Source: Nitrospirota bacterium (GTDB lineage Bacteria > Nitrospirota > Thermodesulfovibrionia > UBA6902 > DSMQ01). Taken from it: a stretch of DNA of 34,903 nt. Shown piece by piece: positions 7,611-34,902 of this stretch. Numbering within the stretch: position 1 is the stretch's first letter; every line of letters starts with the position of its first letter. The stretch spans positions 1-34,903 of the forward strand of contig JACQZD010000052.1 of NCBI GenBank assembly GCA_016207865.1, written 5' to 3'. Under the pieces are notes generated by a model. It had not been told where the DNA came from. It did not search any database and was given only the letters and a program-made list of their open reading frames with translations. A program made the translations under genes and the position numbers.

Positions 7611-7698
7611 AGTAGCCGCAGGCTTTAGCCTGCGTCAAAAGAGTTAAGAGTTAAAAGCAAAAAAGAGCTTGCCTGCCTCTGGCAGGTTGAGAGTTGCT

Positions 7699-7778
7699 GT
7701 CATTCCGTCCCGATGCATCGGGAATGCGGAATCCAGTCCTTTTCATTTTTTCTGGATTCCCGTTTTCACGGGAATGAC
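7699..7778. repeat. REP doublet
   Basis: gtcattccgtcccgatgcatcgggaatgcggaatccag at 7699-7736 and ctggattcccgttttcacgggaatgac at 7752-7778. Confidence 0.8.
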
Positions 7779-7830
7779 GGAACAAATCAAGGTTTCCCAA
7801 CCGCAGTAAACTGCGGGGTATCCTGAAATC

Positions 7831-7919
7831 TCCCCTCTCTTGACGGGAGGGGATGTAGGGGAGGGTGAAAATAATTATTAACCCCCTCACCCTACCCCTC
7901 TCCCGCAAGGGGAGAGGGA
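7831..7919. repeat. palindromic doublet of the CCCCTC...GGGGAG hairpin family
   Basis: tcccctctcttgacgggaggggatgtaggggagggtgaaaa followed by ttaaccccctcaccctacccctctcccgcaaggggagaggg. The two halves are approximate reverse complements. Confidence 0.75.
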
Positions 7920-7941
7920 ATAATTCATAAAAGAGGAGAAT

Positions 7942-9039: not shown

Positions 9040-9045
9040 TACCCT

Positions 9046-10593
9046 ATGAACAAATGGCTTGTTGCATTGACAGTAATGCTTCCGACTCTGATAGAGATTA
9101 TTGACACCTCTGTCGTCAATGTCTCTCTGGACCACATCCGCGGAAGCCTGTCGGCAGGCATTGATGAATCCACGTGGACGATAACATCCTATCTCGTTTC
9201 AAACGCAATCATAATCCCGATGACCGGGTGGCTCAGCAGATTATTCGGAAGAAAGCGCTATCTGATATTTTCCATATCATTATTTACATTAAGCTCCCTG
9301 CTCTGCGGCTTTGCATGGAACCTGCAGAGCCTTGTGCTGTTCAGAATTTTTCAGGGTATCGGAGGCGGCGCGCTTCAGCCCATATCACAGTCTGTCTTAT
9401 TTGAAACGTTTCCCCGGAAACAGCACGGCATGGCAATGGCAATATTCGGCGTCGGCATTATGTTCGGGCCTATTATTGGTCCCTTGCTCGGAGGCTGGAT
9501 AACAGACAACTGGTCGTGGCACTGGATATTCTTTATAAATATTCCGATAGGGATAATCTCCATTCTGCTTGTAATGTTTTTCATCATGGACCCTCCTTAC
9601 ATGAAGCGCATGAAGATGAAGATTGACTACTGGGGGCTTGCGTTTCTCGTACTCGGGCTCGGCTGCCTTCAGATAGTCCTTGACAAAGGAGAGCGTGAAG
9701 ACTGGTTCTCATCAAACTTCATTGTCTGGATGAGCTTAGTCTCGGCAGTCTCTTTGATACTTTTTATAATTACGGAGCTGTTTGCAGAGCATCCTGTCGT
9801 GAACCTGAAGGCCTTTAAAAATCTCACCTTCAGCACAGGGAATATTGTGATGTTTTTTGCGTTTTTCAATCTCTTCGGCAGTATCGTTCTTCTCCCGATA
9901 TTCCTCCAGACGCTTATGGGTTATACATCAACGCTCGCAGGTGTAGTGCTCGGGCCCGGAGGCGTTGCGACACTCATAGCAATGCCGATTGCAGGGAGGC
10001 TCGTGACAAAGATGAATCCAAAGATATTGCTGGGCTTCGTAATACTGGTATCCGCATATTCAACGCATCTCATGTCCCAATTCACCCTCTCGGCGGATTT
10101 CAACACAATAATATGGACCAGGATTGTTCTGGGCATAGGCATGGGATTTCTTTTTATACCGCTTACGACACTGACCATGTCAGGCGTCAAAAAGGAGGAA
10201 ATGGGCAATGCAACTGCTATTTACAACCTTTTAAGAAATCTCGGCGGAAGTTTCGGTGTTGCATTTATCACCACAATGATTGCAAGACGCTCGCAGTTTC
10301 ATCAAAATCATCTTGTAGAACATCTTACGCCGTTTGATGTAAACTATCAGACAATTTTATCGCAGATTTCTCAATTCCTGCATCTCAGGGGGGTTGAAGA
10401 AAGCGGCTCGCAGCATGCGGGTTTGAGCGCCATTTACGGCCAATTATTAAGACAGGCTTCCATGCTGTCCTTTAATGATGCCTTTTATCTCCTAAGCCTG
10501 CTCATGGTCTGCACCCTGCCTCTTTTGCTGTTAATAAGGAGGAGTGCAATAAGAAATGAATCTCCCCGCCGCAGAGACAGCGGGGTATCTTAA
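9046..10593 (+). CDS. MFS drug efflux transporter, DHA2 (EmrB/QacA) family, 14-TMS type
   Basis: 515 aa with motifs LDTSVVNVSL, GWLSRLFGRKR and FRIFQGIGGGAL, and many TM segments. The C-terminal tail SPRRRDSGVS is read from a hairpin repeat. Confidence 0.9.
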   Translation: MNKWLVALTVMLPTLIEIIDTSVVNVSLDHIRGSLSAGIDESTWTITSYLVSNAIIIPMTGWLSRLFGRKRYLIFSISLFTLSSLLCGFAWNLQSLVLFRIFQGIGGGALQPISQSVLFETFPRKQHGMAMAIFGVGIMFGPIIGPLLGGWITDNWSWHWIFFINIPIGIISILLVMFFIMDPPYMKRMKMKIDYWGLAFLVLGLGCLQIVLDKGEREDWFSSNFIVWMSLVSAVSLILFIITELFAEHPVVNLKAFKNLTFSTGNIVMFFAFFNLFGSIVLLPIFLQTLMGYTSTLAGVVLGPGGVATLIAMPIAGRLVTKMNPKILLGFVILVSAYSTHLMSQFTLSADFNTIIWTRIVLGIGMGFLFIPLTTLTMSGVKKEEMGNATAIYNLLRNLGGSFGVAFITTMIARRSQFHQNHLVEHLTPFDVNYQTILSQISQFLHLRGVEESGSQHAGLSAIYGQLLRQASMLSFNDAFYLLSLLMVCTLPLLLLIRRSAIRNESPRRRDSGVS

Positions 10594-10612
10594 AAATGAT
10601 GTGCAAACTATC

Positions 10613-10704
10613 GTCATTCCCTGACTTGATCGGGGAATCCAGACGCCGTTCTCCGATTTAATCAGGGGAACAGAATGGATTGTCCGGTCAAGCCGGACAA
10701 TGAC
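10613..10704. repeat. REP cluster (forward unit, degenerate unit, inverted unit)
   Basis: gtcattccctgacttgatcggggaatccag at 10613-10642, ctccgatttaatcagggga (degenerate), and tggattgtccggtcaagccggacaatgac at 10676-10704. Confidence 0.8.
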
Positions 10705-10719
10705 AAACTTTCAGAAAAA

Positions 10720-11880
10720 ATGACTATATTTTTAATTTTTTACTGCGTATATGCGGCCGGAAATGTTTATGTTTTTTTGAAAGTCAGGCATGTTTTTAGT
10801 CCGGGCCTTTTGGCAAGCATTCTGTTAGGTTTATTCCTGACATTCATGACTTTCTCGCCAATGTTAATACATTTATGTTCTCTCCACTGTCTGCATACAA
10901 TGACAAAAATTTATGCATATCCGGGCTACATGTGGGTTGCAGTCATTGTGTTTTTTGCCTCAGTTGGAATTTTACTGGACCTCTATAGTCTCATCATCAG
11001 AACAGGCGGATTTCTCCTTCAAAACAATTCAATCAGGAAAATCTCAATCTCTCAGCAGACGTCATTTTTTATCACTGTTTTTTTTACAATAGCGCTCACT
11101 GTCTACGGTTATTTTGAGGCGCAGAATTTACAGGTGGAAAAATTAACAATCAGCACCTCAAAGCTTCCTGAAAATGCAGGCAAATTAACCATAGCGCAGA
11201 TATCAGACTTGCATCTTGGAGTCATTATAAGGGAAAAACATCTGGACAAGGTTTTAAAAGTCATTGAAGCGGCAAACCCTGATTTGATAGTCTCAACCGG
11301 GGACCTTCTTAACGGAACGGTGGATAATATTGACTACCTTGCGGGGCACATTAAAAAAATTAACGCACGGTTAGGTAAATTTGCAGTGACCGGCAATCAC
11401 GAATTTTACGGCGGCCTAGATAATGCCGTAAAATTCATGCAGAACTCCGGCTTTACCGTGTTGCGCGGCGAGGGTGTCAGCATACAAAATCTAATTAATA
11501 TCGCTGGCCTTGACGACTCCGCAGTCAAGGACTTTGAACCGGCTGAAAATGTTCCAAAAAAGTCCGTAAGAAAAATCATCTCGGAACTTCCCCGCAATAC
11601 CTTTACAATATTACTTAACCACAGACCTGAAATAGACGGAGACGCACTCGGAACTTTTGACCTCATGCTCTCAGGACATACGCATAAAGGGCAGATATTT
11701 CCCATCCGCATTATTCCCAAACTAATGTTCCCTATAGACTCCGGTTATGCAAAACTGCCCCAGGGTTCTTCCGTCTATGTAAGCCGGGGCGCCGGGACCG
11801 CAGGGCCGCCCGTGCGTTTTCTTGCCCCTCCGGAGATAACGATTATTGAGATTGTCCCTGAAAAGCAAATTCAAAAATAA
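10720..11880 (+). CDS. membrane-anchored metallophosphoesterase (calcineurin-like)
   Basis: Start trimmed to the ATG at 10720, because the upstream part of ORF 10675 is REP sequence. Multi-TM N-terminus, then motifs QISDLHLG, GDLLNG, GNHEF and SGHTHKGQ. Confidence 0.75.
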   Translation: MTIFLIFYCVYAAGNVYVFLKVRHVFSPGLLASILLGLFLTFMTFSPMLIHLCSLHCLHTMTKIYAYPGYMWVAVIVFFASVGILLDLYSLIIRTGGFLLQNNSIRKISISQQTSFFITVFFTIALTVYGYFEAQNLQVEKLTISTSKLPENAGKLTIAQISDLHLGVIIREKHLDKVLKVIEAANPDLIVSTGDLLNGTVDNIDYLAGHIKKINARLGKFAVTGNHEFYGGLDNAVKFMQNSGFTVLRGEGVSIQNLINIAGLDDSAVKDFEPAENVPKKSVRKIISELPRNTFTILLNHRPEIDGDALGTFDLMLSGHTHKGQIFPIRIIPKLMFPIDSGYAKLPQGSSVYVSRGAGTAGPPVRFLAPPEITIIEIVPEKQIQK

Positions 11881-11890
11881 ACAAACGGAT

Positions 11891-11919
11891 TTGTAGAAAT
11901 TGCCGGATTTCTTTATAAT
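11891..11919 (+). promoter_or_regulatory. candidate sigma70-type promoter for the pheA cluster
   Basis: TTGTAG (11891-11896), 17-nt spacer, TATAAT (11914-11919), about 58 nt upstream of the pheA ATG. Confidence 0.35.
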
Positions 11920-11976
11920 TAAGCTTTGCAATACTTAAGCAGGGCAGACGGCCGATACCCTGTGGGGAGAAAATTT

Positions 11977-13044
11977 ATGGACGAAATTAAAAAACTCAGG
12001 GAAGAAATCAACAACATTGACGCCCACATACTTGATTTATTAAACAAACGTACAGAAGTTGCCCTTGAAGTAGGAAAGACTAAAAAAGACAAGCAGATAA
12101 CCCCTCATTCGCCTGACCGGGAGGTGGAAATACTTCAGAGGCTTGAGCAGTTAAACCCAGGACCCTTTCCCAACAGCGTCCTCAAGGCCATCTACAGGGA
12201 AATCTTCTCGGTGTCAATCTCATTGAGACAGCCTTTAAAAATAGCATACCTTGGACCTTCGGCAACCTTCACGCATCTTGCAGCCCAACGGCAGTTCGGC
12301 TTACTGACAGAATATAAATCCGAAAGCACTATTAAAGGTGTTTTTGAAGCGGTTGAAAGGGAAGAATGCCATTACGGGGTAGTGCCGATTGAAAATTCCA
12401 CGGCAGGGGTCGTCAACTATACATTAGACGTGTTTATAGATTCTGAATTGAAAATTGCCTCTGAGATAATGCTTGAGGTATCGCACAATTTATTATCCAA
12501 AACAGGCAAGAAATTAGACATTAAAAAAATTTACTCGTTTCCTCAGGCCACGGCCCAGTGCAGGGGCTGGCTTGAGGAAAACCTCCCGGGCATACCTGTC
12601 ATAGAGGAAATGAGCACCGCCGCCGCCGCCGAACGCGTTTCAAAAGACCCGGGCGCCGCCGCCGTTGCAAGCGAGCTTGCGGCAAGCATTTACAACCTTC
12701 AATTCGTTGAAAAGGGGATTGAAGACCGCAAATACAATTACACCCGCTTTCTTATAATCGCAAAAGATTTTCCCGCCAAAACCGGGAAGGACAAGACCTC
12801 AATCATGTTCTCAATTAAAGACAAGGCAGGCGCCCTTTACGCAATACTTAAACCATTTGCAAAACACAAAATCAATCTTAAAAAGATTGAATCAAGACCC
12901 TCCAGAAGAAAGGCCTGGGAATATATATTTTTCGTTGACATGGAAGGACATATAGAAGACAAAAAGGTCAAAAAGGCAATTGACGAAATAAAAAAAGAAT
13001 GCCTTTATCTTAAGGTGCTCGGCTCCTATCCGTCGGCGGACTAG
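11977..13044 (+). CDS. pheA: bifunctional chorismate mutase / prephenate dehydratase (P-protein)
   Basis: GGGGAGA lies 6 nt before the ATG at 11977. An N-terminal CM domain (LREEINNIDAHILDLLNKR) is followed by a PDT domain (IAYLGPSATFTH, VVPIENSTAGVV) and a C-terminal ACT domain (TSIMFSIKDKAGALY, ESRP). Confidence 0.9.
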   Translation: MDEIKKLREEINNIDAHILDLLNKRTEVALEVGKTKKDKQITPHSPDREVEILQRLEQLNPGPFPNSVLKAIYREIFSVSISLRQPLKIAYLGPSATFTHLAAQRQFGLLTEYKSESTIKGVFEAVEREECHYGVVPIENSTAGVVNYTLDVFIDSELKIASEIMLEVSHNLLSKTGKKLDIKKIYSFPQATAQCRGWLEENLPGIPVIEEMSTAAAAERVSKDPGAAAVASELAASIYNLQFVEKGIEDRKYNYTRFLIIAKDFPAKTGKDKTSIMFSIKDKAGALYAILKPFAKHKINLKKIESRPSRRKAWEYIFFVDMEGHIEDKKVKKAIDEIKKECLYLKVLGSYPSAD

Positions 13045-13075
13045 TAAGGGAGTCATATGTAAAGCCTCATAATTT

Positions 13076-24593: not shown

Positions 24594-26225
24594 GTGCCGG
24601 GTAAAGTTTACATAGTAGGAGCCGGCCCCGGTGACATCGGGCTCTTTACGGTAAAAGGGGTTAAATGCCTTCAAAAGGCAGAGGTAGTCGTCTATGACTT
24701 TCACCTCAATGCCCAGATACTGAATTACATAAACCACAATGCCGAGTTTATCTATGCTGGAAAACGCGGCGGACAGCACACCCTCACTCAGGAGCAGATA
24801 AATCAGGTACTTGTTGATAAGGCAAAACAGGGCAAGGTCATCTGCCGTTTAAAAGGGGGCGACCCGTTTGTATTCGGCAGAGGCGGCGAAGAGGCGGAGA
24901 CGCTCTCAAAAAACAATATTGAATTTGAAATTGTTCCCGGTGTAAGCTCTGCAGTTGCCGCGCCTGCTTATGCAGGAATTCCCCTGACCCACCGTCTTTA
25001 TTCATCATCTTTTGCAGTGGTCCCAGGCTATGAAGACGCATCAAAAGAGGAAAGTTCAATCAACTGGGCAAATCATGCAACAGGCGTAGGAACCATAGTC
25101 TTTCAAAAAAAAAAAAAAAATATCAGCACCGCATGCCGGAGGCTTATTGAAAACGGCAGAAACCCTGATACGCCGGTTGCCGTCATAAGATGGGGCACAA
25201 GACCCGAGCAGACGACCATTACAAGCAATCTAAAAAATATAGCCCGGCTAATCAAAGCAGAAGATATAAAACCTCCGGCAGTAATGGTCGTAGGCGATGT
25301 TGTAAAGCTTAGAGACAAGCTTAAGTGGTATGAAAAAAAACCGATGTTCGGGCATAGAGTGCTCGTCACAAGAGAACACTCAGGCGGTTTTGAGCAGTTG
25401 GAAGAATTAGGCGCTGAAATAATGGAGTTTCCCACTGTTGAAATCGTGCCGCCTAAAGACTGGGGTAAACTTGACAAGGCTGTTGCAAAGATAGACTCAT
25501 ACAACTGGTTAATATTCACAAGCGCAAACGCGGTGAAATTTTTATTCCGGCGACTTTTTGAACTGAATAAAGACATCCGCGATTTGAAGGGGTTGAAAAT
25601 CTGCGCCATAGGCGCAAAAACAGCAGAGGCGATTAATATGTTCGGGATACGGGTGGATTTAGTGCCTGAGGAGTTCAATGCGGAAGGACTTGTAGAAACC
25701 TTCAAGAAAGAACTTGAGAAGATAAGAAGTTCAGAAGATAAGAAAAAAGTAAAGGGGTTAACTCTCTCAACTTCTCAGCCTCTCAACTTCTCAACTTCTC
25801 AATTACCAAACTCCGAACTTTTAAAGGGAATGCGCTTTTTATTGCCGCGGGCAGAGGTTGCGCGCGAAATCTTTCCTGAAAAGGTTAGGGAGCTTGGCGG
25901 TGAGATAGATGTTGTTACTGCATACAGGGCAGTAAAGCCTGAAGTGCACGGGAAAAGGCTGAAGAGATTTTTAAAAGAAGGGAAAATCTCAATAGCGACA
26001 TTTACCAGCGCAGGGACTTTTAAAAATTTCGTGGAAATAATGGGCGAGGATGCTTACGGGCTTTTAAAAGGCATCGCAATCGCAGTGATTGGTCCCGTAA
26101 CTGCAAAGGCGGTTCAAAAAGCCGGCTTGATGGTAGACATCATGCCAAAAGAGGCAACCATTGAGGCAATGGTCAAGGCGATAATTGAATGGGCCGGGAA
26201 TGCCCCCTTAAAAAAGGGGGGCTGA
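24594..26225 (+). CDS. cobA: fused uroporphyrinogen-III C-methyltransferase / uroporphyrinogen-III synthase
   Basis: GTG start. The N-terminal SUMT domain has VYIVGAGPGD, RLKGGDPFVFGRGGEE and VPGVSS. The C-terminal HemD-like half has VLVTRE..., IFTSANAV, LLPRAEVAR and TFTSAG. It contains a 16-A homopolymer, an in-frame low-complexity insert, and a repeat-derived C-terminus. Confidence 0.85.
   Translation: MPGKVYIVGAGPGDIGLFTVKGVKCLQKAEVVVYDFHLNAQILNYINHNAEFIYAGKRGGQHTLTQEQINQVLVDKAKQGKVICRLKGGDPFVFGRGGEEAETLSKNNIEFEIVPGVSSAVAAPAYAGIPLTHRLYSSSFAVVPGYEDASKEESSINWANHATGVGTIVFQKKKKNISTACRRLIENGRNPDTPVAVIRWGTRPEQTTITSNLKNIARLIKAEDIKPPAVMVVGDVVKLRDKLKWYEKKPMFGHRVLVTREHSGGFEQLEELGAEIMEFPTVEIVPPKDWGKLDKAVAKIDSYNWLIFTSANAVKFLFRRLFELNKDIRDLKGLKICAIGAKTAEAINMFGIRVDLVPEEFNAEGLVETFKKELEKIRSSEDKKKVKGLTLSTSQPLNFSTSQLPNSELLKGMRFLLPRAEVAREIFPEKVRELGGEIDVVTAYRAVKPEVHGKRLKRFLKEGKISIATFTSAGTFKNFVEIMGEDAYGLLKGIAIAVIGPVTAKAVQKAGLMVDIMPKEATIEAMVKAIIEWAGNAPLKKGG
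25105..25120 (+). repeat. A16 homopolymer inside the cobA coding sequence
   Basis: Counted directly: c at 25104, a at 25105-25120, t at 25121. Translated as QKKKKN. Confidence 0.95.
25762..25803 (+). repeat. CTCAACTTCTCA-type short tandem repeat embedded in-frame in the HemD half
   Basis: ctctctcaacttctcagcctctcaacttctcaacttctcaatt, translated as LSTSQPLNFSTSQL. Confidence 0.85.
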
Positions 26226-26238
26226 GGGGTAGTTGCAC

Positions 26239-26267
26239 TTGACTTAGTCAAGGACTTAGTCTATTAT
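26239..26267 (+). promoter_or_regulatory. near-consensus sigma70 promoter with two palindromic operator-like sites for phd/vapC
   Basis: TTGACT (26239-26244), 17-nt spacer, TATTAT (26262-26267). GACTTAGTC occurs twice (26241-26249 and 26253-26261), each a 4+1+4 palindrome. AGGAGG sits at 26273-26278 and the ATG at 26285. Confidence 0.6.
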
Positions 26268-26284: not shown

Positions 26285-26518
26285 ATGACTACGGTAAATG
26301 TGCATGAGGCAAAAACTCATTTTTCCAGACTCTTAAACCGGGTCGGCAGCGGTGAAGAAATCATAATCGCAAAGGCAGGGAGGCCCGTAGCCCGCATGCT
26401 TCCCATTATTAAAAGGATTAAGAAACGCGTATCAGGAACAGCCAAAGGGCAGATTATTTTAAAAGACAATTTTGATAAGCCCCTGCCAGGTCATATTTTG
26501 AAAGAATTTGAGCAATGA
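26285..26518 (+). CDS. type II antitoxin, Phd/YefM family
   Basis: 77 aa, MTTVNVHEAKTHFSRLLNRV..GEEIIIAKAGRPVA. Overlaps the downstream PIN gene by ATGA. Confidence 0.85.
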   Translation: MTTVNVHEAKTHFSRLLNRVGSGEEIIIAKAGRPVARMLPIIKRIKKRVSGTAKGQIILKDNFDKPLPGHILKEFEQ

Positions 26519-26907
26519 AAGCTTTGCTGGACACCCACGCGTTTCTCTGGTGGATTCTGGATATTCCTAAATTACCCCCTCAAGTCCGCAGTATAATCAG
26601 TGATGGCAATAATGAATTATTTCTAAGCGCGGCAAGCTGCTGGGAAATTGCAATTAAGGCTCAAATCAACAGGATAAAACTGCCCGCAAAGCCTGACATC
26701 TTTATATCTGAACAATTAGCCATGAATGCTGTTCAGGCCTTGCCGATTCAAATAAGCCATGCCCTTCATGTCTTTAACCTTCCTCTTTTGCACAGCGACC
26801 CTTTTGACCGCATGATTATTGCCCAGGCGCAAATGGAGGATTTGCCGGTTTTAACTTCAGACCCCTTGATTGCCAAGTATAAAGTTAAAGTTATCTGGAA
26901 GGGGTAA
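26515..26907 (+). CDS. vapC: type II toxin, VapC-like PIN-domain ribonuclease
   Basis: 130 aa. LLDTHAFLWW (first acidic residue), SAASCWEIAIK, and DPFDRMIIAQA...LTSD, typical of PIN toxins paired with Phd-type antitoxins. Confidence 0.85.
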   Translation: MKALLDTHAFLWWILDIPKLPPQVRSIISDGNNELFLSAASCWEIAIKAQINRIKLPAKPDIFISEQLAMNAVQALPIQISHALHVFNLPLLHSDPFDRMIIAQAQMEDLPVLTSDPLIAKYKVKVIWKG

Positions 26908-27042
26908 TTGTGAAAATTACCTTTATCAGAACTGGCTTACGGTGTATTATCTACAAAAATTCCTAATACATTCCCCCTTAACAAAGGGGGCGCAGGGGGT
27001 TGTTATTTCGTCATTGACTTGAAAATAGGAATTGTTGTAACC

Positions 27043-27225: not shown

Positions 27226-27357
27226 ATGACAAACATCTCTGCTAAAAAAATCACTTTCCTTTTCCTTGTCATGTTCGTGCTGGGGCTTGCGGGAACTGCC
27301 TTTGCCCAGTCAGAGGACGAGGCGCTGAAGCGCTATCCGCAGAACTGCTGGATATAA
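27226..27357 (+). pseudogene. truncated 5' fragment of a TPR-CHAT paralogue (signal peptide plus about 15 codons)
   Basis: Reads MTNISAKKITFLFLVMFVLGLAGTAFAQSEDEALKRYPQNCWI*. The intact gene reads MRNVSVRKIAFLLLFPLFVIGLAGTAFAQSEDEAVKLYQQGQ at 30008. Confidence 0.75.
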
Positions 27358-27367
27358 TAATGGTTTA

Positions 27368-27376
27368 TGATATAAT
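27368..27376 (+). promoter_or_regulatory. extended -10 promoter element (TGnTATAAT) in the shared junction upstream of MNT/HEPN pair 1
   Basis: TGATATAAT at 27368-27376. An identical element sits at 28545-28553 upstream of pair 2. Confidence 0.45.
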
Positions 27377-27438
27377 GAAACTAAAAACAAGCTTATTTTT
27401 TTGGATACAATTTCGAAAAGGAAGTTTGAAAAAAATAT

Positions 27439-27768
27439 ATGATAAATAAAGAACTCATTAAAAAAGCTGTTGCAAAGATATCTGCTCAGTTCAATCCTCA
27501 GCGTATTATCCTTTTTGGCTCATATGCGAGGGGCACCGCTGATGATAAAAGTGATATTGACCTTTTAGTGATATGTCCTCTAAGGAAAAGGCGACGGACC
27601 TTAATGCTTGAAATGGATAGAGTGCTGAAGGGTTTAAAATTGGCAAGGGATATTGTTGTGCTAAGTCCGGGGGAATTTGAGATTGAAAAAGAAATCTCAG
27701 GCACAATAGCCCGTTATGCATGGAAGGAAGGAAAGCCCCTCTATGAACATAAACAAAAAAGTAAATGA
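27439..27768 (+). CDS. nucleotidyltransferase (MNT, Pol-beta fold) antitoxin of a HEPN/MNT module
   Basis: 109 aa with the GS-x(n)-DxD motif LFGSYARGTADDKSDIDLLVI. Overlaps the downstream HEPN gene. Confidence 0.85.
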   Translation: MINKELIKKAVAKISAQFNPQRIILFGSYARGTADDKSDIDLLVICPLRKRRRTLMLEMDRVLKGLKLARDIVVLSPGEFEIEKEISGTIARYAWKEGKPLYEHKQKSK

Positions 27769-28156
27769 AATTGCAAGAGAATGGATTGGACATGCCGAAG
27801 AAGATTTGCGGCTGGCAAAACATGCATTCAAGCTCTCAAGTTCGTGCCCATATAAACTGGTTGCTTTTCATGCACAGCAGTGTGCTGAGAAATATTTAAA
27901 GGCTTTTCTGACAATTAAAAATGTGGATTTCCCTTATACGCATAACATATCCCTGTTGCTGGAGTTATGTTCTTCCTATGCCGACTGGGCAAAAGATTTG
28001 CACGAAGCTGAGGATTTAACCCCCTATGCAATTACCGCCCGTTATCCCGGAAAAGATAAAGTAACTAAAAAAGACGCCGTTAAAGCTGTAGAGACTGCCA
28101 ATAAAGTTCGTAAGATAATCAGAAAGGTTTTAAAACAACACAGTATAAAACCATAG
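27743..28156 (+). CDS. HEPN-domain protein (toxin partner of MNT)
   Basis: Start set at the ATG at 27743. AEEDLRLAKHAF, FHAQQCAEKYLKAFL, THNISLLLELC and ARYPG match the HEPN family that is typically paired with MNT. Confidence 0.8.
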   Translation: MNINKKVNEIAREWIGHAEEDLRLAKHAFKLSSSCPYKLVAFHAQQCAEKYLKAFLTIKNVDFPYTHNISLLLELCSSYADWAKDLHEAEDLTPYAITARYPGKDKVTKKDAVKAVETANKVRKIIRKVLKQHSIKP

Positions 28157-28333
28157 AACTTCTGCAATGGAAATAGCAACTTATGTCATCCGGTTTATTT
28201 CTCTCCTTAATGTGTGAAAATTACCTTGATAGAGGGCGCCCTGCGGTGTATTATCTATTCAAAAATTCCCCCTTAACAAAGGGGGACTGAGGGGGTTGTT
28301 ATAAAGGATTGTTATAAAAAAACCTATAAATCC

Positions 28334-28398: not shown

Positions 28399-28534
28399 AT
28401 GACAACCATCTCCATTAAAAAAATCACTTTCCTTTTCCTCCTTGCCCTGTTCGTGTTAGGGTATGGCGGGAACTGCCTTTGCCCAGTCAGAGGATGAGAC
28501 ACTGAAGCGCTATCCGCAGAACTGCTGGATATAA
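28399..28534 (+). pseudogene. truncated and frameshifted 5' fragment of a TPR-CHAT paralogue
   Basis: Begins MTTISIKKITFLFLLALFVLG. A 1-nt length difference (GGGTATGGCGGG here, GGGGCTTGCGGG in copy A) shifts the frame, with a stop at 28495-28497. Nucleotide homology to copy A continues to 28534. Confidence 0.75.
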
Positions 28535-28544
28535 TAATGGTTTA

Positions 28545-28553
28545 TGATATAAT
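28545..28553 (+). promoter_or_regulatory. extended -10 promoter element (TGnTATAAT) upstream of MNT/HEPN pair 2
   Basis: TGATATAAT, in the same junction sequence as 27368-27376. Confidence 0.45.
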
Positions 28554-28600
28554 GAAACTAAAAACAAGCTTACTTTTTTGGATACAATAGTGATTTAAAA

Positions 28601-28978
28601 ATGCAAACTCAAAAAGAAACCAAAAAAACTACCGTAGCCTTAAAACTCAAAAAAAATATCAAACGGATTCTCCTAAATATAGCAGGGAAAATCAGGGATA
28701 ATTATCATCCCGAAAAGATAATCCTTTTTGGCTCATACGCCTATGGAACACCTACAGAAGACAGCGACATTGATATTGTCGTTATTAAAAAAGAAAATCG
28801 AGACATCTCTCCAATTGACAGAAGCATAGAAATCAGGAGAATACTTGCTGACGAAAACAGGCAGTGGGCTATAACGCCAATTGTTTATACACCTAAAGAA
28901 TTGGAATACCAGCTCTCAATCGGTGATGACTTTGTCGCTGAAATACTTGAAAAAGGGAAAGTCCTTTATGCCAGATAG
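28601..28978 (+). CDS. nucleotidyltransferase (MNT) antitoxin of a second HEPN/MNT module
   Basis: 125 aa with LFGSYAYGTPTEDSDIDIVVI. Shares only family-level similarity with the MNT at 27439. Confidence 0.85.
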   Translation: MQTQKETKKTTVALKLKKNIKRILLNIAGKIRDNYHPEKIILFGSYAYGTPTEDSDIDIVVIKKENRDISPIDRSIEIRRILADENRQWAITPIVYTPKELEYQLSIGDDFVAEILEKGKVLYAR

Positions 28979-29363
28979 AACAAAGGCGGCTCAGGAGTGG
29001 TTTGAAAAGGGCAGGCATGATATTGAAGGGGCCAGACTGCTTTTTGAAAGAGAACATTTTACTGATACTATTGCAATGCTGATACAACAAGCATTGGAAA
29101 AATATCTAAAAGGCTATCTCATTCTGCATGGGTGGAAATTGAAGAAAATTCATGATTTGATACCCCTTCTTGCAGAGGCCACTACACATAATTCAACCTT
29201 CCAAACATTTGAAGAAGATTGCAGACGCATAAGTGAATATTATTCCCACGCCAGATACCCCGGCAGGATGCCGATAGATTATCCAAGAGAAGAAATCAGA
29301 AAATCACTTGCCGCAGCGGATGAATTGATTAAGCTTCTGGAAATATTAAAGAAAAGGAATTGA
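28968..29363 (+). CDS. HEPN-domain protein (second module)
   Basis: The ATG at 28968 overlaps the MNT stop by 11 nt. Motifs: AQEWFEKGRHDIEGARLLFE, IQQALEKYLKGYL, KIHDLIPLL, HARYPG. Confidence 0.8.
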   Translation: MPDRTKAAQEWFEKGRHDIEGARLLFEREHFTDTIAMLIQQALEKYLKGYLILHGWKLKKIHDLIPLLAEATTHNSTFQTFEEDCRRISEYYSHARYPGRMPIDYPREEIRKSLAAADELIKLLEILKKRN

Positions 29364-29839
29364 AACGAGAGTTATCAAAAGCAAACGAACGTGCAGCTGA
29401 GGCTAACCAAAAAGCTGCTGTGTTGAATAAGCGAGCTGCTACACTTGAAAAAGAGGCAGAACAATCTCGGTTAGAAACAGCACGAATAAAACTACAAATT
29501 TCTTGGCGAGAGATTACGCCAGCACAACGCCATAAAATTATCGGTGTGCTTAAGTCGCATCCTCTTTCAATAGATGTAGTCTGCGTTGGCAGTGACCCAG
29601 AAGCTTGCGAGTATGCCCAGCAATTAGTAGCCGTATTGAAGGCTTCAGGATCAAACCCGAAGTTCGTGAAACTCCTTGCGGCATCAAACAATCCATCTGG
29701 ACTTTTGCTCGGGGGTACAAGTGGCCCTGATATGGAACTTCTGGGAACCGCCTTTCGCACGGCAGGTATCCATTTTTCTGCGGGCAGAAATATTCCTAAT
29801 TTGGAAATTCGGATAGGGACAAAGCCACACGCACAGTAA
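29360..29839 (+). CDS. hypothetical coiled-coil protein, possibly a 5'-truncated remnant
   Basis: 159-aa ORF with only a TTG start, which overlaps the HEPN stop. A coiled coil (ANERAAEANQKAAVLNKRAATLEKEAEQSRLETARIKLQI) is followed by a globular part. I see no SD and no N-terminal anchor. Codon flavour looks different from its neighbours. Confidence 0.4.
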   Translation: MKRELSKANERAAEANQKAAVLNKRAATLEKEAEQSRLETARIKLQISWREITPAQRHKIIGVLKSHPLSIDVVCVGSDPEACEYAQQLVAVLKASGSNPKFVKLLAASNNPSGLLLGGTSGPDMELLGTAFRTAGIHFSAGRNIPNLEIRIGTKPHAQ

Positions 29840-30007
29840 TCATCAAAGAAATAACGCCATGACAAAGTTATACACAATAAGGCGTTCAAGGAGACAGGAT
29901 TAAATGCTTTTTGTTTTCGTTCAATCACCTGTGCCCCTGCGCCTTAACTTTAGCAGTCCCCCTTAACGAAGGCGGATTCAGTGGGATGTTGTAACAGAAT
30001 AAATCTT

Positions 30008-32272
30008 ATGAGAAATGTCTCTGTTAGAAAAATAGCTTTCCTTTTACTCTTTCCCCTGTTTGTGATAGGGCTTGCGGGAACTGCCTTTGCCCAGTCAGAG
30101 GATGAGGCGGTAAAACTATATCAGCAGGGACAAGAAGCGCAAAAATACGGCAGATATCAGGAGGCGCTGTCTTATTTTGAGAAGTCACTAGAAATTAATA
30201 AAAAACTTGGTCATCTTCAAGGTATCTCTGCCAATTTGAATTATATCGGTGCTGTTTACGATTCACTGGGGCAGTATGAAAAGGCACTGACTTATTATGA
30301 AGAATCTTTAAAGATATCTAAAGAACTTAAAATCCCACAATCTGTAGCCGGAAGCCTCAACAACATCGGTGGTGTTTATCTTTATGAGAAAAGATATAAA
30401 GAAGCTGAACAGAAATTCCTTCAAACAAAAGGCGAGCCGGGTCTTGTAGCGGTTTTTTTAGCCACAGGAAGACATAATGAGGCATTAAAACTCCTTAAAA
30501 ATATGCCTCCAGAATGGAATAGCGATAACCCGTATCGCATCCAGTTTTACACCCAATACGGTTTTGCCTTGAAAGGAGTTGGACAACTCAAAGAATCATC
30601 CAGTAAATTTTATAAAGCAGTCTCCATCGCTGAGGAAATGAGGCAGAAGGTTAAGGGAGAAAAGACAGGATTTTTGGGTGGAGGTTACTTAGGCGGGCGT
30701 ATCCGAGCATACAAAGGTCTTGTGGCATCTTTATCTGAACGTGCAATCAACGGTGAAACAAAAGACAAGGAATTTATCTCTTTTGGAAAAGATTTCCCTT
30801 CCAATGCCTTCTACTTCGCTGAATCCACAAAGGCGCGAACACTCCTTGAGGCAATGGTAGAATCGGCAAGGAAAAGCCAGAAGGTTGAGATATCAGAAGA
30901 TTTGAGACAAAGAGAACAATCCCTCATTAATCAGCTTACTGCAATAGAAAATCTATGGGATGATGCTTATAAAAAAGGAGAGGAAGTCTTAAAAAGACTT
31001 CAGGAAAGAAAAGAAGGGCTTACAGTAGAACTTAATACTCTGATAAAAGAGCTAAGACAAAAATATCCCAGATATGCCGCCCTTAATTATCCCAAACCCA
31101 TTCCTGCCGAGGAATTGCCTTTGAAAGACAATGAAGTCCTCATAGAGTATGCAATTGGCGATGATGCAAGTTATGTTTTTGTTGTAAAAAAAGGCGGGGT
31201 AAAAAATCTCTTTAAAATCCCTATCGGCAAGGAGGCGCTTGAGGAAAAGGTAAAGTCATTCATGGAGCCGATGAATACAAAAAATTATGAGGGGTTTTCT
31301 GTAAAAGAGGCAAAAGGACTTTATGATCTTTTGCTTGCGGATGCGTTAAAGGAGGTTCACCCCTCCCCCACCCCCCTCCCGCAAGGGGAGGGGGCAAATG
31401 TAATCATTGTCCCTGACGGAATTTTAGGACTGCTGCCGTTTGAGGCATTGATAGTAAAAGAAGGCAAGGATTACAAGGACAGCCTTTATGCCGGTGACAA
31501 ATACAATATCAGCTATTACCAATCAGCCACAGTGCTTGCGCTTCAGAGAGGTTTGAAAGAAAACAAACCGGAGAAAATGCTTTTTGCGCTCGGCAATCCG
31601 ATTTATTCAACAGACGACCTGCGTTACATTGCATGGAAAGAGAAAAAAGAAAACGTGCTTATTGCCAGCTTGAACAATAAATATTCTTTCAGAGGGCTTG
31701 CGATAAAACCTAAATGGGGCAAGACCACAGAGGCAGATGCAGGCAGTAAGATAGAATTCCCTCCCCTGCCTGAGACAGAGATTGAGGTAAAAGAGATTGC
31801 AAAGATAATGAATGTAAAGACTCAGCCTCCTGATGTTTTACTTTCCATGACGGCAAATGAGACAGAGTTGAGAAAGACAGGTCTTGAGAAATATAAATAT
31901 GTCCACTTTGCCACTCATGCCTCTTTGCCCGGGATGATTCAGGGCATTAATGAGCCGTTCTTGCTTTTGGGACAGGTGGAGAATAATGAAAAGGATGATG
32001 GGTTTCTGACAATAAATGAGGTTTTGGATTTAAGGCTTAATGCCGATGCAGTGGTCTTATCCGCCTGTGTTACAGGTGTGGGTAAAGAAGTTGAAGGCGA
32101 AGGCGTTGCAAACTTTGCAAGGGCATTTCAGCACGCAGGCGCAAGGTCCATTGTTGTCAGCCTCTGGGAAGTGGCGTCAGACCCTGCTGTAGAATATATG
32201 AAGGCGTTTTATGGTCATTTAAAGGCAGGCAAGAGCCGAGGAGAGGCATTGCGGCTTGCACGAAACGAATAA
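30008..32272 (+). CDS. secreted TPR-repeat CHAT-domain (caspase-like) protease; the frame breaks about 20 codons before the family-typical C-terminus, which continues to 32331 in another frame
   Basis: Sec-type signal MRNVSVRKIAFLLLFPLFVIGLAGTAFA/QSEDE. TPR repeats are present (YQEALSYFEKSLEI..., YEKALTYYEESLKI...). The CHAT domain has His (YVHFATHASL) and Cys (VVLSACVTGVG) dyad contexts and VVSLWEV. The frame ends at ...EALRLARNE*. The frame ending at 32331 encodes IKTKYPNPFYWAVFILHGEG*, the usual CHAT C-terminal motif. Confidence 0.85.
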   Translation: MRNVSVRKIAFLLLFPLFVIGLAGTAFAQSEDEAVKLYQQGQEAQKYGRYQEALSYFEKSLEINKKLGHLQGISANLNYIGAVYDSLGQYEKALTYYEESLKISKELKIPQSVAGSLNNIGGVYLYEKRYKEAEQKFLQTKGEPGLVAVFLATGRHNEALKLLKNMPPEWNSDNPYRIQFYTQYGFALKGVGQLKESSSKFYKAVSIAEEMRQKVKGEKTGFLGGGYLGGRIRAYKGLVASLSERAINGETKDKEFISFGKDFPSNAFYFAESTKARTLLEAMVESARKSQKVEISEDLRQREQSLINQLTAIENLWDDAYKKGEEVLKRLQERKEGLTVELNTLIKELRQKYPRYAALNYPKPIPAEELPLKDNEVLIEYAIGDDASYVFVVKKGGVKNLFKIPIGKEALEEKVKSFMEPMNTKNYEGFSVKEAKGLYDLLLADALKEVHPSPTPLPQGEGANVIIVPDGILGLLPFEALIVKEGKDYKDSLYAGDKYNISYYQSATVLALQRGLKENKPEKMLFALGNPIYSTDDLRYIAWKEKKENVLIASLNNKYSFRGLAIKPKWGKTTEADAGSKIEFPPLPETEIEVKEIAKIMNVKTQPPDVLLSMTANETELRKTGLEKYKYVHFATHASLPGMIQGINEPFLLLGQVENNEKDDGFLTINEVLDLRLNADAVVLSACVTGVGKEVEGEGVANFARAFQHAGARSIVVSLWEVASDPAVEYMKAFYGHLKAGKSRGEALRLARNE
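31358..31396 (+). repeat. REP-like hairpin (CCCCTCCC-GCAA-GGGGAGGGG family) embedded in-frame in the CHAT gene
   Basis: caccCCTCCCCCACCCCCCTCCCGCAAGGGGAGGGGGc, translated HPSPTPLPQGEGA. Same family as the intergenic 7886-7919 (ctcaccctacccctctcccgcaaggggagaggg). Confidence 0.8.
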
Positions 32273-32383
32273 AGACAAAATACCCGAATCCATTTTATTG
32301 GGCGGTTTTTATACTGCATGGAGAAGGGTGAGCATTAAAAATTGTATAATAATCGTCATTGACCCGAAAATACCTTTAAACCT

Positions 32384-32460
32384 GTCATTCCGGCAGTTCA
32401 CAAGCCGGAATCCAGTTCCTTGTGAAAAGATTCTGGATTCCGCACCAAGTGCGGAATGAC
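32384..32460. repeat. REP doublet between the CHAT and DUF4384 genes
   Basis: gtcattccggcagttcacaagccggaatccag at 32384-32415 and ctggattccgcaccaagtgcggaatgac at 32433-32460. Confidence 0.85.
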
Positions 32461-32478
32461 AAATATTGGGGAGGACTC

Positions 32479-33336
32479 ATGAAAAAAATACTCATTCCAT
32501 TAATATTAACTCTTTTATTAACCCCTGCCCTCTACGCCGCGCAGTCCACCATCACTGAATCCGAGGGCTATGCCTGTATGGGCGAGGACAAGTCGCGAAA
32601 GCAAACCGAGCAGACGGCAATGGCTGATGCAAAGAGGAATGCAGTTGAATATGCCGCAACTTATATTAAGAGTGAAACACAGGTCAAAGATTTTGAGCTT
32701 CAAAAGGATTTAATTGAGGCGTATTCAAGGGCGTCTGTAAAAATAATTCAGGAGATTAAGAGGGAATGGTATAAAGACGCCTCTGTAGGGGATTGTTTTA
32801 AGATTAAAATTAAGGCAGAGGTTATTCCTGATGAAAAGGCCATGGAAAAGGTTGCCAAAAATGTACAATCTGCCGATGACCCGTCTGCGCCGTTAAGCAT
32901 TCAGCTTTGGACCGACAAAAAGGAATATAAAAAAGGTGATATGGTAAAGGTCTATGTCAAAGGCAATAAGCCTTTTTATGCCCGTGTATTGTATAAAGAT
33001 GCAGGAGGTGAATTACTTCAGCTCCTGCCGAATCCATACAGAAAGGATAATTATTTCAACGGCGGGGTGATTTATGAAATTCCTTCGGGAAATGACAAGT
33101 TTGACCTTGAGGTAAGTTCTCCGTTTGGTGAGGAAAATGTGGTAATCTATGCAAGCACGTCTCCTTTGGGCGAGATAAATCTCAAATCAGAGGGCGGGGT
33201 TTATCAGATAAAGACAACGGCATCGGATGTGGGAGACAAGACCAGGGGGATTACATTTAAAGAAAAGACCGGGGATAAAGCAACACAGGCTTCTGAATTT
33301 TTTGAGGAAAAGGTGGTTGTGAGAACAGAGAAGTAG
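32479..33336 (+). CDS. secreted protein with an LPP20-like N-terminal domain and a DUF4384-like C-terminal domain
   Basis: GGGGAGG precedes the ATG at 32479. Signal MKKILIPLILTLLLTPALYA/AQ. The N-terminal part (SEGYACMGEDKSRKQTEQTAMADAKRNAVEYAATYI) resembles LPP20-type lipoproteins. The C-terminal part (LSIQLWTDKKEYKKGDMVKVYVKGNKPFYARVLY.DAGGELLQLLPN...) matches the DUF4384 pattern often linked to caspase or CHAT proteins. This is assigned from memory of the family. Confidence 0.7.
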   Translation: MKKILIPLILTLLLTPALYAAQSTITESEGYACMGEDKSRKQTEQTAMADAKRNAVEYAATYIKSETQVKDFELQKDLIEAYSRASVKIIQEIKREWYKDASVGDCFKIKIKAEVIPDEKAMEKVAKNVQSADDPSAPLSIQLWTDKKEYKKGDMVKVYVKGNKPFYARVLYKDAGGELLQLLPNPYRKDNYFNGGVIYEIPSGNDKFDLEVSSPFGEENVVIYASTSPLGEINLKSEGGVYQIKTTASDVGDKTRGITFKEKTGDKATQASEFFEEKVVVRTEK

Positions 33337-33340
33337 TATC

Positions 33341-33516
33341 AGCAATGGGACATGAGACATAAAAATCTCTTAAAACGCAATGAGTTATTATTGAGATGCC
33401 ATGCGGCAATCGGTAGCGGTTTGTTCTGGAATAAAAATTATACATTCTTCAATCTGCCGCATGACATATTTTAAGGTATTGCCCTAATAGATTTTTCTGC
33501 CCCATGTCCCATTGCT
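33341..33516. repeat. nested inverted-repeat element between the DUF4384 gene and rlmB
   Basis: AGCAATGGGACATG (33341-33354) pairs with CATGTCCCATTGCT (33503-33516), a perfect 14 bp. The inner pair is CATGCGGCA (33400-33408) with TGCCGCATG (33455-33463). Confidence 0.7.
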
Positions 33517-33583: not shown

Positions 33584-34324
33584 ATGAAACCATCAAACGA
33601 CAACTGGATTTACGGCGTTAACCCCGTGCTTGAGGCATTAAAAGCCGGCGGCAGGATTAAATCCATCCGCATATCATCAGGCAGGCACAAGACCGTTCCT
33701 GAAATAATGCAGGCGTCGGAAAAAGCCGGAATCCCTGTAACGATTGAAACTGAGGATTTTTTTAATAAGACATTCCCAAAGGGGCATCAGGGGGTTGCTG
33801 CAAGGATTTCGCAAAAAGGATATGTTGAGCTTGACGAGTTGTTAAAGATACCTTCAGAGAGAAACGAGCCTGCATTTTTTTTAATCCTGGACTGCATAGA
33901 AGACCCGCAAAACTTAGGCGCAATATTAAGGACCGCCGAAACTGCCGGGGTTCACGGTGTTATAATCCAATCACACAGGGCAGCAGGGTTTAGCCCTGCT
34001 GTTTACAAATCATCCGCCGGCGCAGTAGAATACCTGCCGGTAGCTCAGGTATCCAATATCAAACATGCTATAGACCTCCTGAAAAAAACAGGGGTCTGGA
34101 TATACGGAGCTGACATGCAGGCTAAAGAAACACTATGGGATGCTGATATCAGGGGACCTGCTGCAATAGTAATGGGTTCTGAAGGCTCAGGCCTAAGAAA
34201 AACCGTCAGGGAGCACTGTGATTATCTCCTTAGAATCCCCCTCAAGGGAAGGGTTTCCTCGTTAAATGTCTCTGTTGCCGCAGCATTAATTGTCTTTGAA
34301 GCATTAAGGCAACGCACAAGGTAG
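33584..34324 (+). CDS. rlmB: 23S rRNA (guanosine-2'-O-)-methyltransferase, SpoU/TrmH family
   Basis: 246 aa. IYGVNPVLEAL, HQGV, LDCIEDPQNLGAILRTAE, MGSEGSGLR and SLNVSVAA are SPOUT class motifs. Confidence 0.88.
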   Translation: MKPSNDNWIYGVNPVLEALKAGGRIKSIRISSGRHKTVPEIMQASEKAGIPVTIETEDFFNKTFPKGHQGVAARISQKGYVELDELLKIPSERNEPAFFLILDCIEDPQNLGAILRTAETAGVHGVIIQSHRAAGFSPAVYKSSAGAVEYLPVAQVSNIKHAIDLLKKTGVWIYGADMQAKETLWDADIRGPAAIVMGSEGSGLRKTVREHCDYLLRIPLKGRVSSLNVSVAAALIVFEALRQRTR

Positions 34325-34636: not shown

Positions 34637-34712
34637 GCCGATGTAGCTCAGTTGGTAGAGCAGCTGATTTGTAATCAGCGGGTCGGGGGTTCGAATCCCT
34701 TCATCGGCTCCA
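34637..34712 (+). tRNA. tRNA-Thr (anticodon UGU), CCA encoded
   Basis: Manual cloverleaf: acceptor GCCGATG/CATCGGC, D arm GCTC-AGTTGGTA-GAGC, anticodon arm GCTGA-TTTGTAA-TCAGC (TGT), T arm GGGGG-TTCGAAT-CCCTT, then T-CCA. Confidence 0.9.

Positions 34713-34817: not shown

Positions 34818-34902
<85 letters not shown>

Follow-up and report, generated by a model that had tools for sequence, protein, structure and literature searches.

The subject of this work is a pair of genes in a 34.9-kb contig of a Nitrospirota metagenome-assembled genome (MAG): a gene for a putatively exported TPR-CHAT protease (30008-32331) and, following it on the same strand, the gene for a putatively exported DUF4384 protein (32479-33336). 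The contig as a whole is called the window here, and its gene families were called by Pfam. We see a slightly better than even chance that this pair is the eroded remnant of a periplasmic signalling module, in which proteolysis is coupled to cyclic nucleoside monophosphate (cNMP) output, and not a piece of a defence island. Bacterial caspase-like proteases are mainly understood as cytoplasmic death or defence effectors. The core of the proposed module would be an exported protease of clan CD (the caspase fold) together with a dedicated exported partner made of an N-terminal domain and DUF4384, and the protease slot would be filled interchangeably by a TPR-CHAT protein or by a WD40-caspase of the C14 family. 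The window itself carries a modest message; more is to be learned from the operons that relatives have kept intact.

These operons were found by a scan for DUF4384-protein orthologues across GTDB, with a single genome for each species, which gave 213 species and loci; 80 loci were analysed, and the families in their neighbourhoods were scored with hidden Markov models (HMMs) built from Pfam-verified seeds. Locus L013 harbors a Pfam-verified operon of genes for FecR (6584-7636), CHAT (7665-9971), DUF4384 (9995-10846) and a CHASE2 sensor with a class-III cyclase (10914-13073). The gaps between these genes measure 23-67 nt, the TPR-CHAT is of the short type seen in the window, and a BrkB-cNMP-binding gene, also Pfam-verified, stands convergent beside the cyclase. 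The arrangement is repeated in L012, where the upstream open reading frame (ORF) matches the home-built FecR HMM over a short fragment only. A set of FecR, DUF4384, WD40-C14 and CHASE2-cyclase genes is present in L001, L009, L019, L020, L025, L034 and L095, in some of which a TPR-CHAT gene lies further downstream, and a gene for a Crp-like cNMP-binding regulator stands directly upstream of DUF4384 in loci of the Desulfobacterales type (e.g. L005). FecR occurs within 10 kb of the DUF4384 gene in 18 of the 80 loci. Genes for cNMP-binding proteins co-occur with the CHASE2/cyclase loci (7/12 against 9/68, Fisher p 0.0016). Predicted signal peptides or lipoboxes are present on all products of the clusters, TPR-CHAT, C14-WD40 and FecR among them, and transmembrane (TM) segments on the CHASE2 cyclase. 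Because the relatives carry FecR, CHASE2 cyclases and cNMP-binding proteins, we favour envelope signalling over the role in defence or programmed lysis that the initial annotation of this DNA had considered. In the literature we found no description of an operon of FecR, clan-CD protease, DUF4384 and CHASE2-cyclase genes.

Such a module could work as follows. The TPR or WD40 repeats of the protease, FecR or both would capture a periplasmic cue and thereby activate the protease. The activated protease would dock on the DUF4384 protein or cleave it, and the candidate sites for this are the DDPSAPL linker and the acidic C-terminal tail of the partner. Docking or cleavage would then change the state of the CHASE2 sensor and, with it, cytoplasmic cNMP synthesis and gene expression. 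We infer the substrate, the signal and the direction of signalling. A wider proposal is considerably more doubtful and is offered tentatively: Nitrospirota, Desulfobacterota and Nitrospinota may possess an undescribed periplasmic proteolytic cascade, in which TPR-CHAT or WD40-C14, the DUF4384 protein and a FecR-like protein gate a CHASE2 adenylate or guanylate cyclase in an outside-in pathway from caspase to cyclic nucleotide, and DUF4384 may be a general docking or substrate module of clan-CD proteases. If this is true, the docking role would also explain the presence of DUF4384 in some Csx30 proteins, caspase-like proteases would extend to envelope signalling, and DUF4384 and CHASE2 would gain a testable role. 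Four-gene operons such as that of L013 are simple targets for reconstitution.

The protease gene of the window, as it stands, encodes 754 residues (30008..32272; like the other protein-coding features of the window named here it lies on the plus strand, unless noted). Pfam assigns residues 434-753 to CHAT (PF12770; E 1.3e-50, 173 bits against a cut-off of 24, profile positions 3-264 of 289) and finds TPR_12 with E 2e-21. The caspase-type dyad is present: His637 (HFATHA, codon 31916..31918) and Cys687 (LSACVTG, codon 32066..32068) are both invariant among 60 aligned homologues. The N-terminus, MRNVSVRK-IAFLLLFPLFVIGLAGTAFA/QSE, has the n-region, the hydrophobic core of about 20 residues and the AxA site of a Sec signal peptide, predicted from hydrophobicity and the -3/-1 rule to span 28 codons (30008..30091) with cleavage at AFA/QS. 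Signal peptides on the two proteins of the pair and on homologues were called by hand and with a crude script for hydrophobicity and the -3/-1 rule. An export signal (signal peptide or lipobox) was seen in 110/118 TPR-CHAT homologues, and the remaining 8 look like proteins with mis-called starts. In the window protein the N-terminal signal is the sole hydrophobic segment. Thus the TPR repeats, the CHAT domain and the intact dyad contexts (HFATHAS, LSACVTG) ascribed to this protein by the initial annotation are borne out, its signal peptide is likely by these criteria, and its coiled-coil middle region had to be given up, since residues 263-352 are simply long helices in the AlphaFold2 (AF2) model.

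This model was made for the protein of 774 residues that results when the frameshift described below is repaired (pLDDT 84.9, pTM 0.83), and it consists of helical repeats followed by a CHAT fold. Its best Foldseek matches are Csx29 (8EEY_B, E 1.9e-13), DdvA (E 2.5e-11) and separase (E ~1e-10); a sequence search of the CHAT protein against the PDB returned TPR matches only. The TPR arrays of CHAT homologues are built from tandem units of 120 or 126 nt with DNA identity of 80-93% (L007 3834-4220; L078 6754-7966; L025 16314-17112). The similarity of these units implies that repeats are probably gained and lost fast, which may lie behind the length range of 737-1192 residues among the homologues. 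The repaired window protein is a short-array form.

The CHAT gene of the window is not complete. The profile match stops at 264/289 and the reading frame at a TAA (32270-32272); the L013 relative matches positions 3-288/289, and the window protein lacks the C-terminal ...YPNPFYWAxFxLxG segment of a complete CHAT domain. Translation and alignment with homologues locate the canonical C-terminus, IKTKYPNPFYWAVFILHGEG*, out of frame in frame +2 at 32269-32331 (63 nt). Comparison with homologues places the lesion and the premature stop at 32267..32272: the site reads GAA/TAA, the homologues imply GAA ATA, and one A was lost (GAA ATA to GAATA), which gives the allele GAATAAAG as opposed to the form without the deletion, GAAATAAAG. 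Twelve homologues end in ...RLARNEIKAKYPNPFYWAVFILHGEG, and the repaired window protein aligns with them residue for residue. The frameshift removes 20 residues, 12 of which are invariant or at least 90% conserved in the 60-sequence alignment; in the AF2 model the lost stretch covers the tail of one helix, a further short helix and the terminal strand (768-771).

A second assembly, L011 (GCA_016208945.1), has the identical sequence at the frameshift site. The two assemblies differ by five substitutions over a core alignment of about 5 kb; three of them are in CHAT, all non-synonymous, and one falls at a conserved Ala. In L011, moreover, 80 bp at the beginning of the DUF4384 gene are duplicated in tandem and 87 bp after that gene are missing (L011 7186-7341 and 8068/8069 against window 32449-32528 and 33256-33342), and its hemD and rlmB calls are split, so that this assembly is probably of lower quality and drawn from the same population. 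The site at 32267-32272 has no slippery X XXY YYZ motif, and programmed frameshifting was rejected for this reason. Because the same lesion is present in L011 and no slippery sequence exists, we treat the gene as recently inactivated, although an assembly error common to both assemblies may lie behind the lesion. The local copy is probably inactive, because CHAT is frameshifted and the most conserved 20 residues are lost. The envelope-located proteolytic system proposed for this DNA is a fair description of the family, while the local protease copy is frameshifted, and the locus is best annotated as an eroded copy, with a frameshifted CHAT gene and an intact DUF4384 gene. The erosion would comprise the 1-nt deletion, the short TPR array, the absence of FecR and cyclase, and the toxin-antitoxin (TA) cassettes and CHAT 5' fragments upstream; the DUF4384 gene is the only gene of the module in the window that looks fully intact.

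One would argue that the pair is nevertheless an autonomous and functional two-gene system of exported protease and partner, active in defence, surface remodelling or programmed lysis, in which the truncation is tolerated or bypassed. We regard this as unlikely. It agrees with the intact dyad, with the otherwise open CHAT frame, with the good Shine-Dalgarno sequence before the intact DUF4384 gene, and with the recurrence of the same CHAT-DUF4384 order in L007, L012, L013, L038, L046 and L078. However, the truncation takes away the part of the protein that the family conserves best, with the terminal beta-strand in it, the frameshift site offers no slippery heptamer, and nothing in the context indicates lysis or adhesin substrates. 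Moreover, the pairs of L012, L013 and L007 are accompanied by FecR, CHASE2 cyclase or both; the flanks of L046 are without FecR or CHASE2, and L038 and L078 end too near the pair to tell. The intergenic gap of the pair is 147 nt in the window compared to 23 nt in the intact L013 operon.

The partner is a protein of 285 residues encoded by an intact ORF (32479..33336). DUF4384 (PF14326) occupies residues 149-229 in its C-terminal half, as had been recognized from the sequence (32923..33165; E 9.5e-25, 86.9 bits against a cut-off of 27, full profile 1-81). The signal peptide that had been noted on it is supported as well: the N-terminus MKK-ILIPLILTLLLTPALYA/AQ is Sec-like, with a hydrophobic core and an LYA/AQ cleavage site, and by the hand heuristic it is a type-I signal with no lipobox. 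The protein has 1949 homologues, with identities of 63-92% across Nitrospirota, Desulfobacterota and Nitrospinota, and for its orthologues the identity is 60-75% across these phyla and others. Their signal peptides vary, and the mature N-terminus AQSTITE.EG.ACMG.D.S is invariant. Invariant as well are the DDPSAPL motif in the inter-domain linker and two cysteines, Cys33 and Cys106, which would fit an oxidising compartment; the acidic C-terminal tail (SEFFE) is conserved. NCBIfam assigned neither protein of the pair to a family, TPR noise aside.

The AF2 model of the partner was built from 18 close orthologues and has a pLDDT of 52 overall; the N-domain is modelled as a beta-alpha-alpha-beta-beta unit with pLDDT 68-93. 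The description of this protein as LPP20-like is weakly supported. LPP20 (PF02169) gave no HMM match at E<=0.1 and the protein has no lipobox, which sets it outside that family; the N-domain has a sub-threshold FlgT_N match (E 0.018) and weak Foldseek matches to Lpp20 of H. pylori (5OK8) and to Tip-alpha (E ~5e-3, TM 0.34-0.45 on target), which suggests a likeness at the level of the modelled fold and not family membership. The DUF4384-family profile had no match in the PDB, and a search with a distant DUF4384 paralogue from L061, made to deepen the alignment, returned one match only.

The same protein could be read not as substrate or relay but as an inhibitor, anchor or chaperone, which holds the periplasmic clan-CD protease inactive or localised at the envelope via its LPP20-like domain. 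Securin, the partner that controls separase, a relative of TPR-CHAT proteins, is a pseudosubstrate inhibitor of that protease. Whether the protease is CHAT or C14, the partner remains the same; it is extremely conserved (60-75% identity across phyla), and N-domains of the LPP20, FlgT_N, CsgG and GNA1162 types are typical of envelope-associated, lipoprotein-like modules. All of this would suit an inhibitor or anchor, and yet the protein has a type-I signal only, with no lipobox, and the Syntrophales orthologue persists without an adjacent protease. We consider such a role improbable.

The adjacency of the two families, which the initial annotation asserted and proposed to check by a neighbourhood survey, is conserved. 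CHAT or Peptidase_C14 lies within 300 bp and on the same strand as the DUF4384 gene in 29/80 loci, within 1.5 kb in 36/80 and within 10 kb in 42/80; for CHAT alone the counts are 7/80 within 300 bp and 14/80 within 10 kb. Within 1 kb of the DUF4384 gene, protease genes have a density of 2.69 per 10 kb, which drops to 0.06 per 10 kb at a distance of 6-10 kb, an enrichment of about 40-fold near the gene, and the pairing is not due to chance. Locus L096 is the closest other orthologue with a readable upstream neighbourhood: its DUF4384 protein is 87% identical and rlmB follows, and a WD40-Peptidase_C14 caspase (1-2283) occupies the slot that TPR-CHAT holds in the window (30008-32331). A 176-residue ORF is inserted ahead of the DUF4384 gene in L096. 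Fusions exist too. Peptidase_C14 is present in 5/32 multidomain relatives of DUF4384, and the protein P0246 (1412 residues) unites the LPP20-like N-domain, DUF4384, WD40 repeats and Peptidase_C14 in a single chain, a 'Rosetta-stone' fusion of the products of two neighbouring genes.

These data bear on the reading that the two genes are functionally unrelated and stand together because of a common exported-protein regulon or a recombination-prone region. The region is indeed rich in repeats and insertions. Additionally, in 28/80 loci, mostly of Syntrophales, the DUF4384 orthologue stands alone between pyrK/pyrD and a metallo-beta-lactamase (MBL) hydrolase gene, and neither a protease nor FecR nor a cyclase is encoded within 10 kb of it; 2/4 sampled TPR-CHAT homologues are situated among housekeeping genes without DUF4384. 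Against it stand the distance-dependent enrichment, the tight same-strand spacing, the domain fusions and the replacement of CHAT by a non-orthologous protease at an orthologous locus, and we find it quite unlikely that the neighbours are unrelated.

The lone orthologues and the CHAT homologues without DUF4384 weigh against our own reading of the pair as a remnant of a signalling module too, and they do not stand by themselves. CHASE2 lies within 10 kb of the DUF4384 gene in only 15/80 loci. The window has no trace of FecR or cyclase: tblastn with the FecR proteins of L013 and L007 and the cyclase of L013 gave nothing below E 0.4, and because both are absent, the signalling reading cannot be tested on the window. 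The DUF4384 half of the partner is not confidently modelled (AF2 pLDDT ~30). The term pseudogene is given to the CHAT gene on sequence alone, its ORF is open apart from the frameshift, and the CHAT genes of the two assemblies are separated by only the three substitutions mentioned, every one of them non-synonymous.

The pair was initially described as embedded among VapC and HEPN toxins. Toxin genes are present, as a VapB (PhdYeFM)/VapC (PIN) pair (26285..26907) and two MNT (NTP_transf_2)/HEPN pairs (27439..28156 and 28601..29363), all assigned by Pfam, but they are neighbours and insertions, not components of the protease system. Three copies of the CHAT 5' end (start codon ATG, signal peptide and ~12 codons) are present in direct orientation (27226-27357, 28399-28519 and, as the real start, 30008-30127). 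The first copy is truncated to the start codon, the signal peptide and 12 further codons within a 43-residue ORF, and the second (28399..~28519) is truncated and frameshifted by a 1-nt insertion. Each truncated copy leads into a 95%-identical block with a promoter-like TGGATA-16-TATAAT (flank blocks 27282-27411 and 28459-28588) and then into an MNT/HEPN pair, and the MNT/HEPN genes are far more diverged than these flanks. We take the cassettes to be insertions, because they bring a promoter-like block with them and duplicates of the CHAT 5' end lie at their borders. This looks like repeated recombination-mediated insertion or duplication of cassettes at the FecR/CHAT junction, through the CHAT 5' region. 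In L013 FecR directly abuts CHAT with no TA genes between them. In L007, where CHAT is 75% identical and stands next to DUF4384, the order is FecR, what is left of the same vapBC, a different TA pair and CHAT; unrelated TA families are found at the same spot in L007, L001, L003 and L092. Therefore, the TA genes are opportunistic insertions and not partners of the protease system.

CHAT proteases are at work in defence by type III-E CRISPR and by gasdermins. The MNT proteins match the PADLOC candidate models PDC-S09 and PDC-M05A, and the periplasmic TPR-CHAT protein DdvA controls a defence island (PMC11506125). Still, it is very improbable that the pair belongs to an anti-phage defence or TA island, with CHAT coupled to the VapC and HEPN toxins beside it or acting as an abortive-infection effector, given that PADLOC has no defence model that matches the CHAT or DUF4384 protein, that relatives have other TA families at this position or none at all, that the cassettes are insertions, that the flanking genes (cobA-hemD, rlmB, tRNAs) are housekeeping genes and that toxins and protease would occupy different compartments. 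No gasdermin family match appeared in the Pfam results of the window, where the neighbours are DUF4384, the TA genes, rlmB and cobA-hemD.

The rest of the neighbourhood can be described briefly. The cobA-hemD gene ends at 26225, upstream of the TA genes. Between the second HEPN gene and CHAT lies an ORF of 159 residues (29360..29839) with no Pfam, NCBIfam or PADLOC family, and it is overlapped on the minus strand by an ORF of 199 residues (29329..29928). Downstream of the DUF4384 gene follow rlmB (33584..34324) and, at the end of the contig, tRNA-Thr(TGT) (34637-34712) and tRNA-Tyr(GTA) (34818-34902). These two tRNAs are all that the Rfam scan found in the window, with no riboswitch or other RNA near the pair. 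In Syntrophales loci (L063 7196-11632; L085 7041-11597) the DUF4384 gene has a stable housekeeping setting of EIIA-Man, GNAT, pyrK, pyrD, DUF4384 and MBL hydrolase. The clusters of L001 (1134-5915) and L094 (2508-6951) both add a GNA1162-like and TPR lipoprotein and a transglutaminase-core protein; L001 also has an exported FlgT_N-like protein and L094 an SLH-domain protein, and the protease genes may thus belong to a larger envelope assembly.

Two families of repeated hairpins are dispersed in the window. The first, similar to repetitive extragenic palindromes (REP-like; GTCATTCC - stem/loop - GGAATC[CAG]), has 14 copies, all read as intergenic and often in convergent pairs (1303, 7699/7755, 10613, 13076/13126, 19598/19686, 24115, 24182, 27169, 28334 and 32384/32436). 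One convergent pair (GTCATTCC...GGAATC) is located between the CHAT and DUF4384 genes (32384..32460). The second family (TCCCCCTTAACAAAGGGGG + GGGGGTTGTTAT) is found at 26202-26239, 26971-27008, 28267-28304 and 29957-29994, that is, on the 3' side of cobA-hemD, vapC and the first HEPN gene and also just before the CHAT start; the hairpin at 28286-28267 scores as terminator-like on the minus strand. An integron-like, attC reading of the TCCCCCTTAACAAAGGGGG hairpins was rejected, as there is no integrase and there are no R'/R'' core sites.

Among the known systems, the closest precedent for an exported TPR-CHAT protease is DdvA of M. xanthus, a periplasmic TPR-CHAT protein that was solved by cryo-electron microscopy and proposed to be a signal-activated site-1 protease (PMC11506125). 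Hence an exported TPR-CHAT is not new in itself, although the characterised CHAT and caspase-like proteases that the initial annotation knew of are cytoplasmic. For caspase homologues of prokaryotes, signal or TM segments at the N-terminus had been noted already in 2012 (PMC3501461). DdvA resembles the proposed module in its periplasmic TPR-CHAT part, in its conserved His/Cys dyad and in the proposal that proteolysis turns a cue from outside the cytoplasm into a response within it. It differs in being TM-anchored, with a cytoplasmic zinc anti-sigma (ZAS) domain bound to an extracytoplasmic function (ECF) sigma factor; the window protein is predicted to be soluble and to have its signal peptide cleaved, it carries no ZAS domain, its neighbours include no sigma gene, and the partners of its relatives are DUF4384, FecR and the CHASE2 cyclase. 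Outside the fold, the two proteins have no detectable sequence similarity.

The Craspase of Csx29 and Csx30 shares the TPR and CHAT architecture, is the best structural match and has a protease that works on a neighbouring protein dedicated to it. The TPR-CHAT protein Csx29 has Csx30 as its substrate, and some C-terminal domains of Csx30 are DUF4384 (bioRxiv 10.1101/2022.08.17.504292). By analogy, this is the best available hint that DUF4384 could be a module for docking to CHAT or a substrate of it. In contrast to the window pair with its export signals, Craspase is cytoplasmic, activated by RNA through Cas7-11 and encoded with CRISPR, and none of its companions (Cas7-11/gRAMP, Csx30, Csx31, RpoE) is found in the window. 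DUF4384 is also a reported accessory domain of cyanobacterial orthocaspases (PMC7475262). The orthocaspases and metacaspase-like C14 proteins are similar in belonging to clan CD, and C14-WD40 fills the same operon slot as TPR-CHAT in relatives; they differ in that they are of the Peptidase_C14 family, not CHAT, and that the characterised examples are cytoplasmic. Separase, likewise, is a helical-repeat and CHAT protease under the control of a bound partner, but it is nuclear or cytoplasmic, much larger and of unrelated biological role.

On the side of the sensor, periplasmic FecR-domain proteins are paired with CHASE2 sensors in the 'BiofilmReg' operon of Burkholderia (PMC5192318), and FecR-domain proteins, together with an exported TPR protein, occur in the CHASE2-cyclase/Clr regulon of S. 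meliloti (PMC5498481). The CyaD1/CyaD2/CyaK-Clr system of S. meliloti is alike in its output through cAMP (cyclic AMP) and a Crp-like regulator and in a regulon with an exported TPR protein and a periplasmic protein. A tblastn search with the CHAT domain against plasmids, which asked whether SMb20495, the exported TPR protein of the S. meliloti Clr regulon, is a TPR-CHAT protein, gave 198 matching records, and Sinorhizobium was not among the ten organisms listed; a match on a Pseudosulfitobacter plasmid belongs to a different cluster of CHAT, caspase and serine-protease genes. These FecR-CHASE2 modules differ from the proposed one in that no clan-CD protease or DUF4384 protein is described for them, and the window differs from them in having neither FecR nor CHASE2. 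Thus the system is not categorically new: it is a variation on periplasmic TPR-CHAT proteins, exported caspase homologues and FecR-CHASE2 modules.

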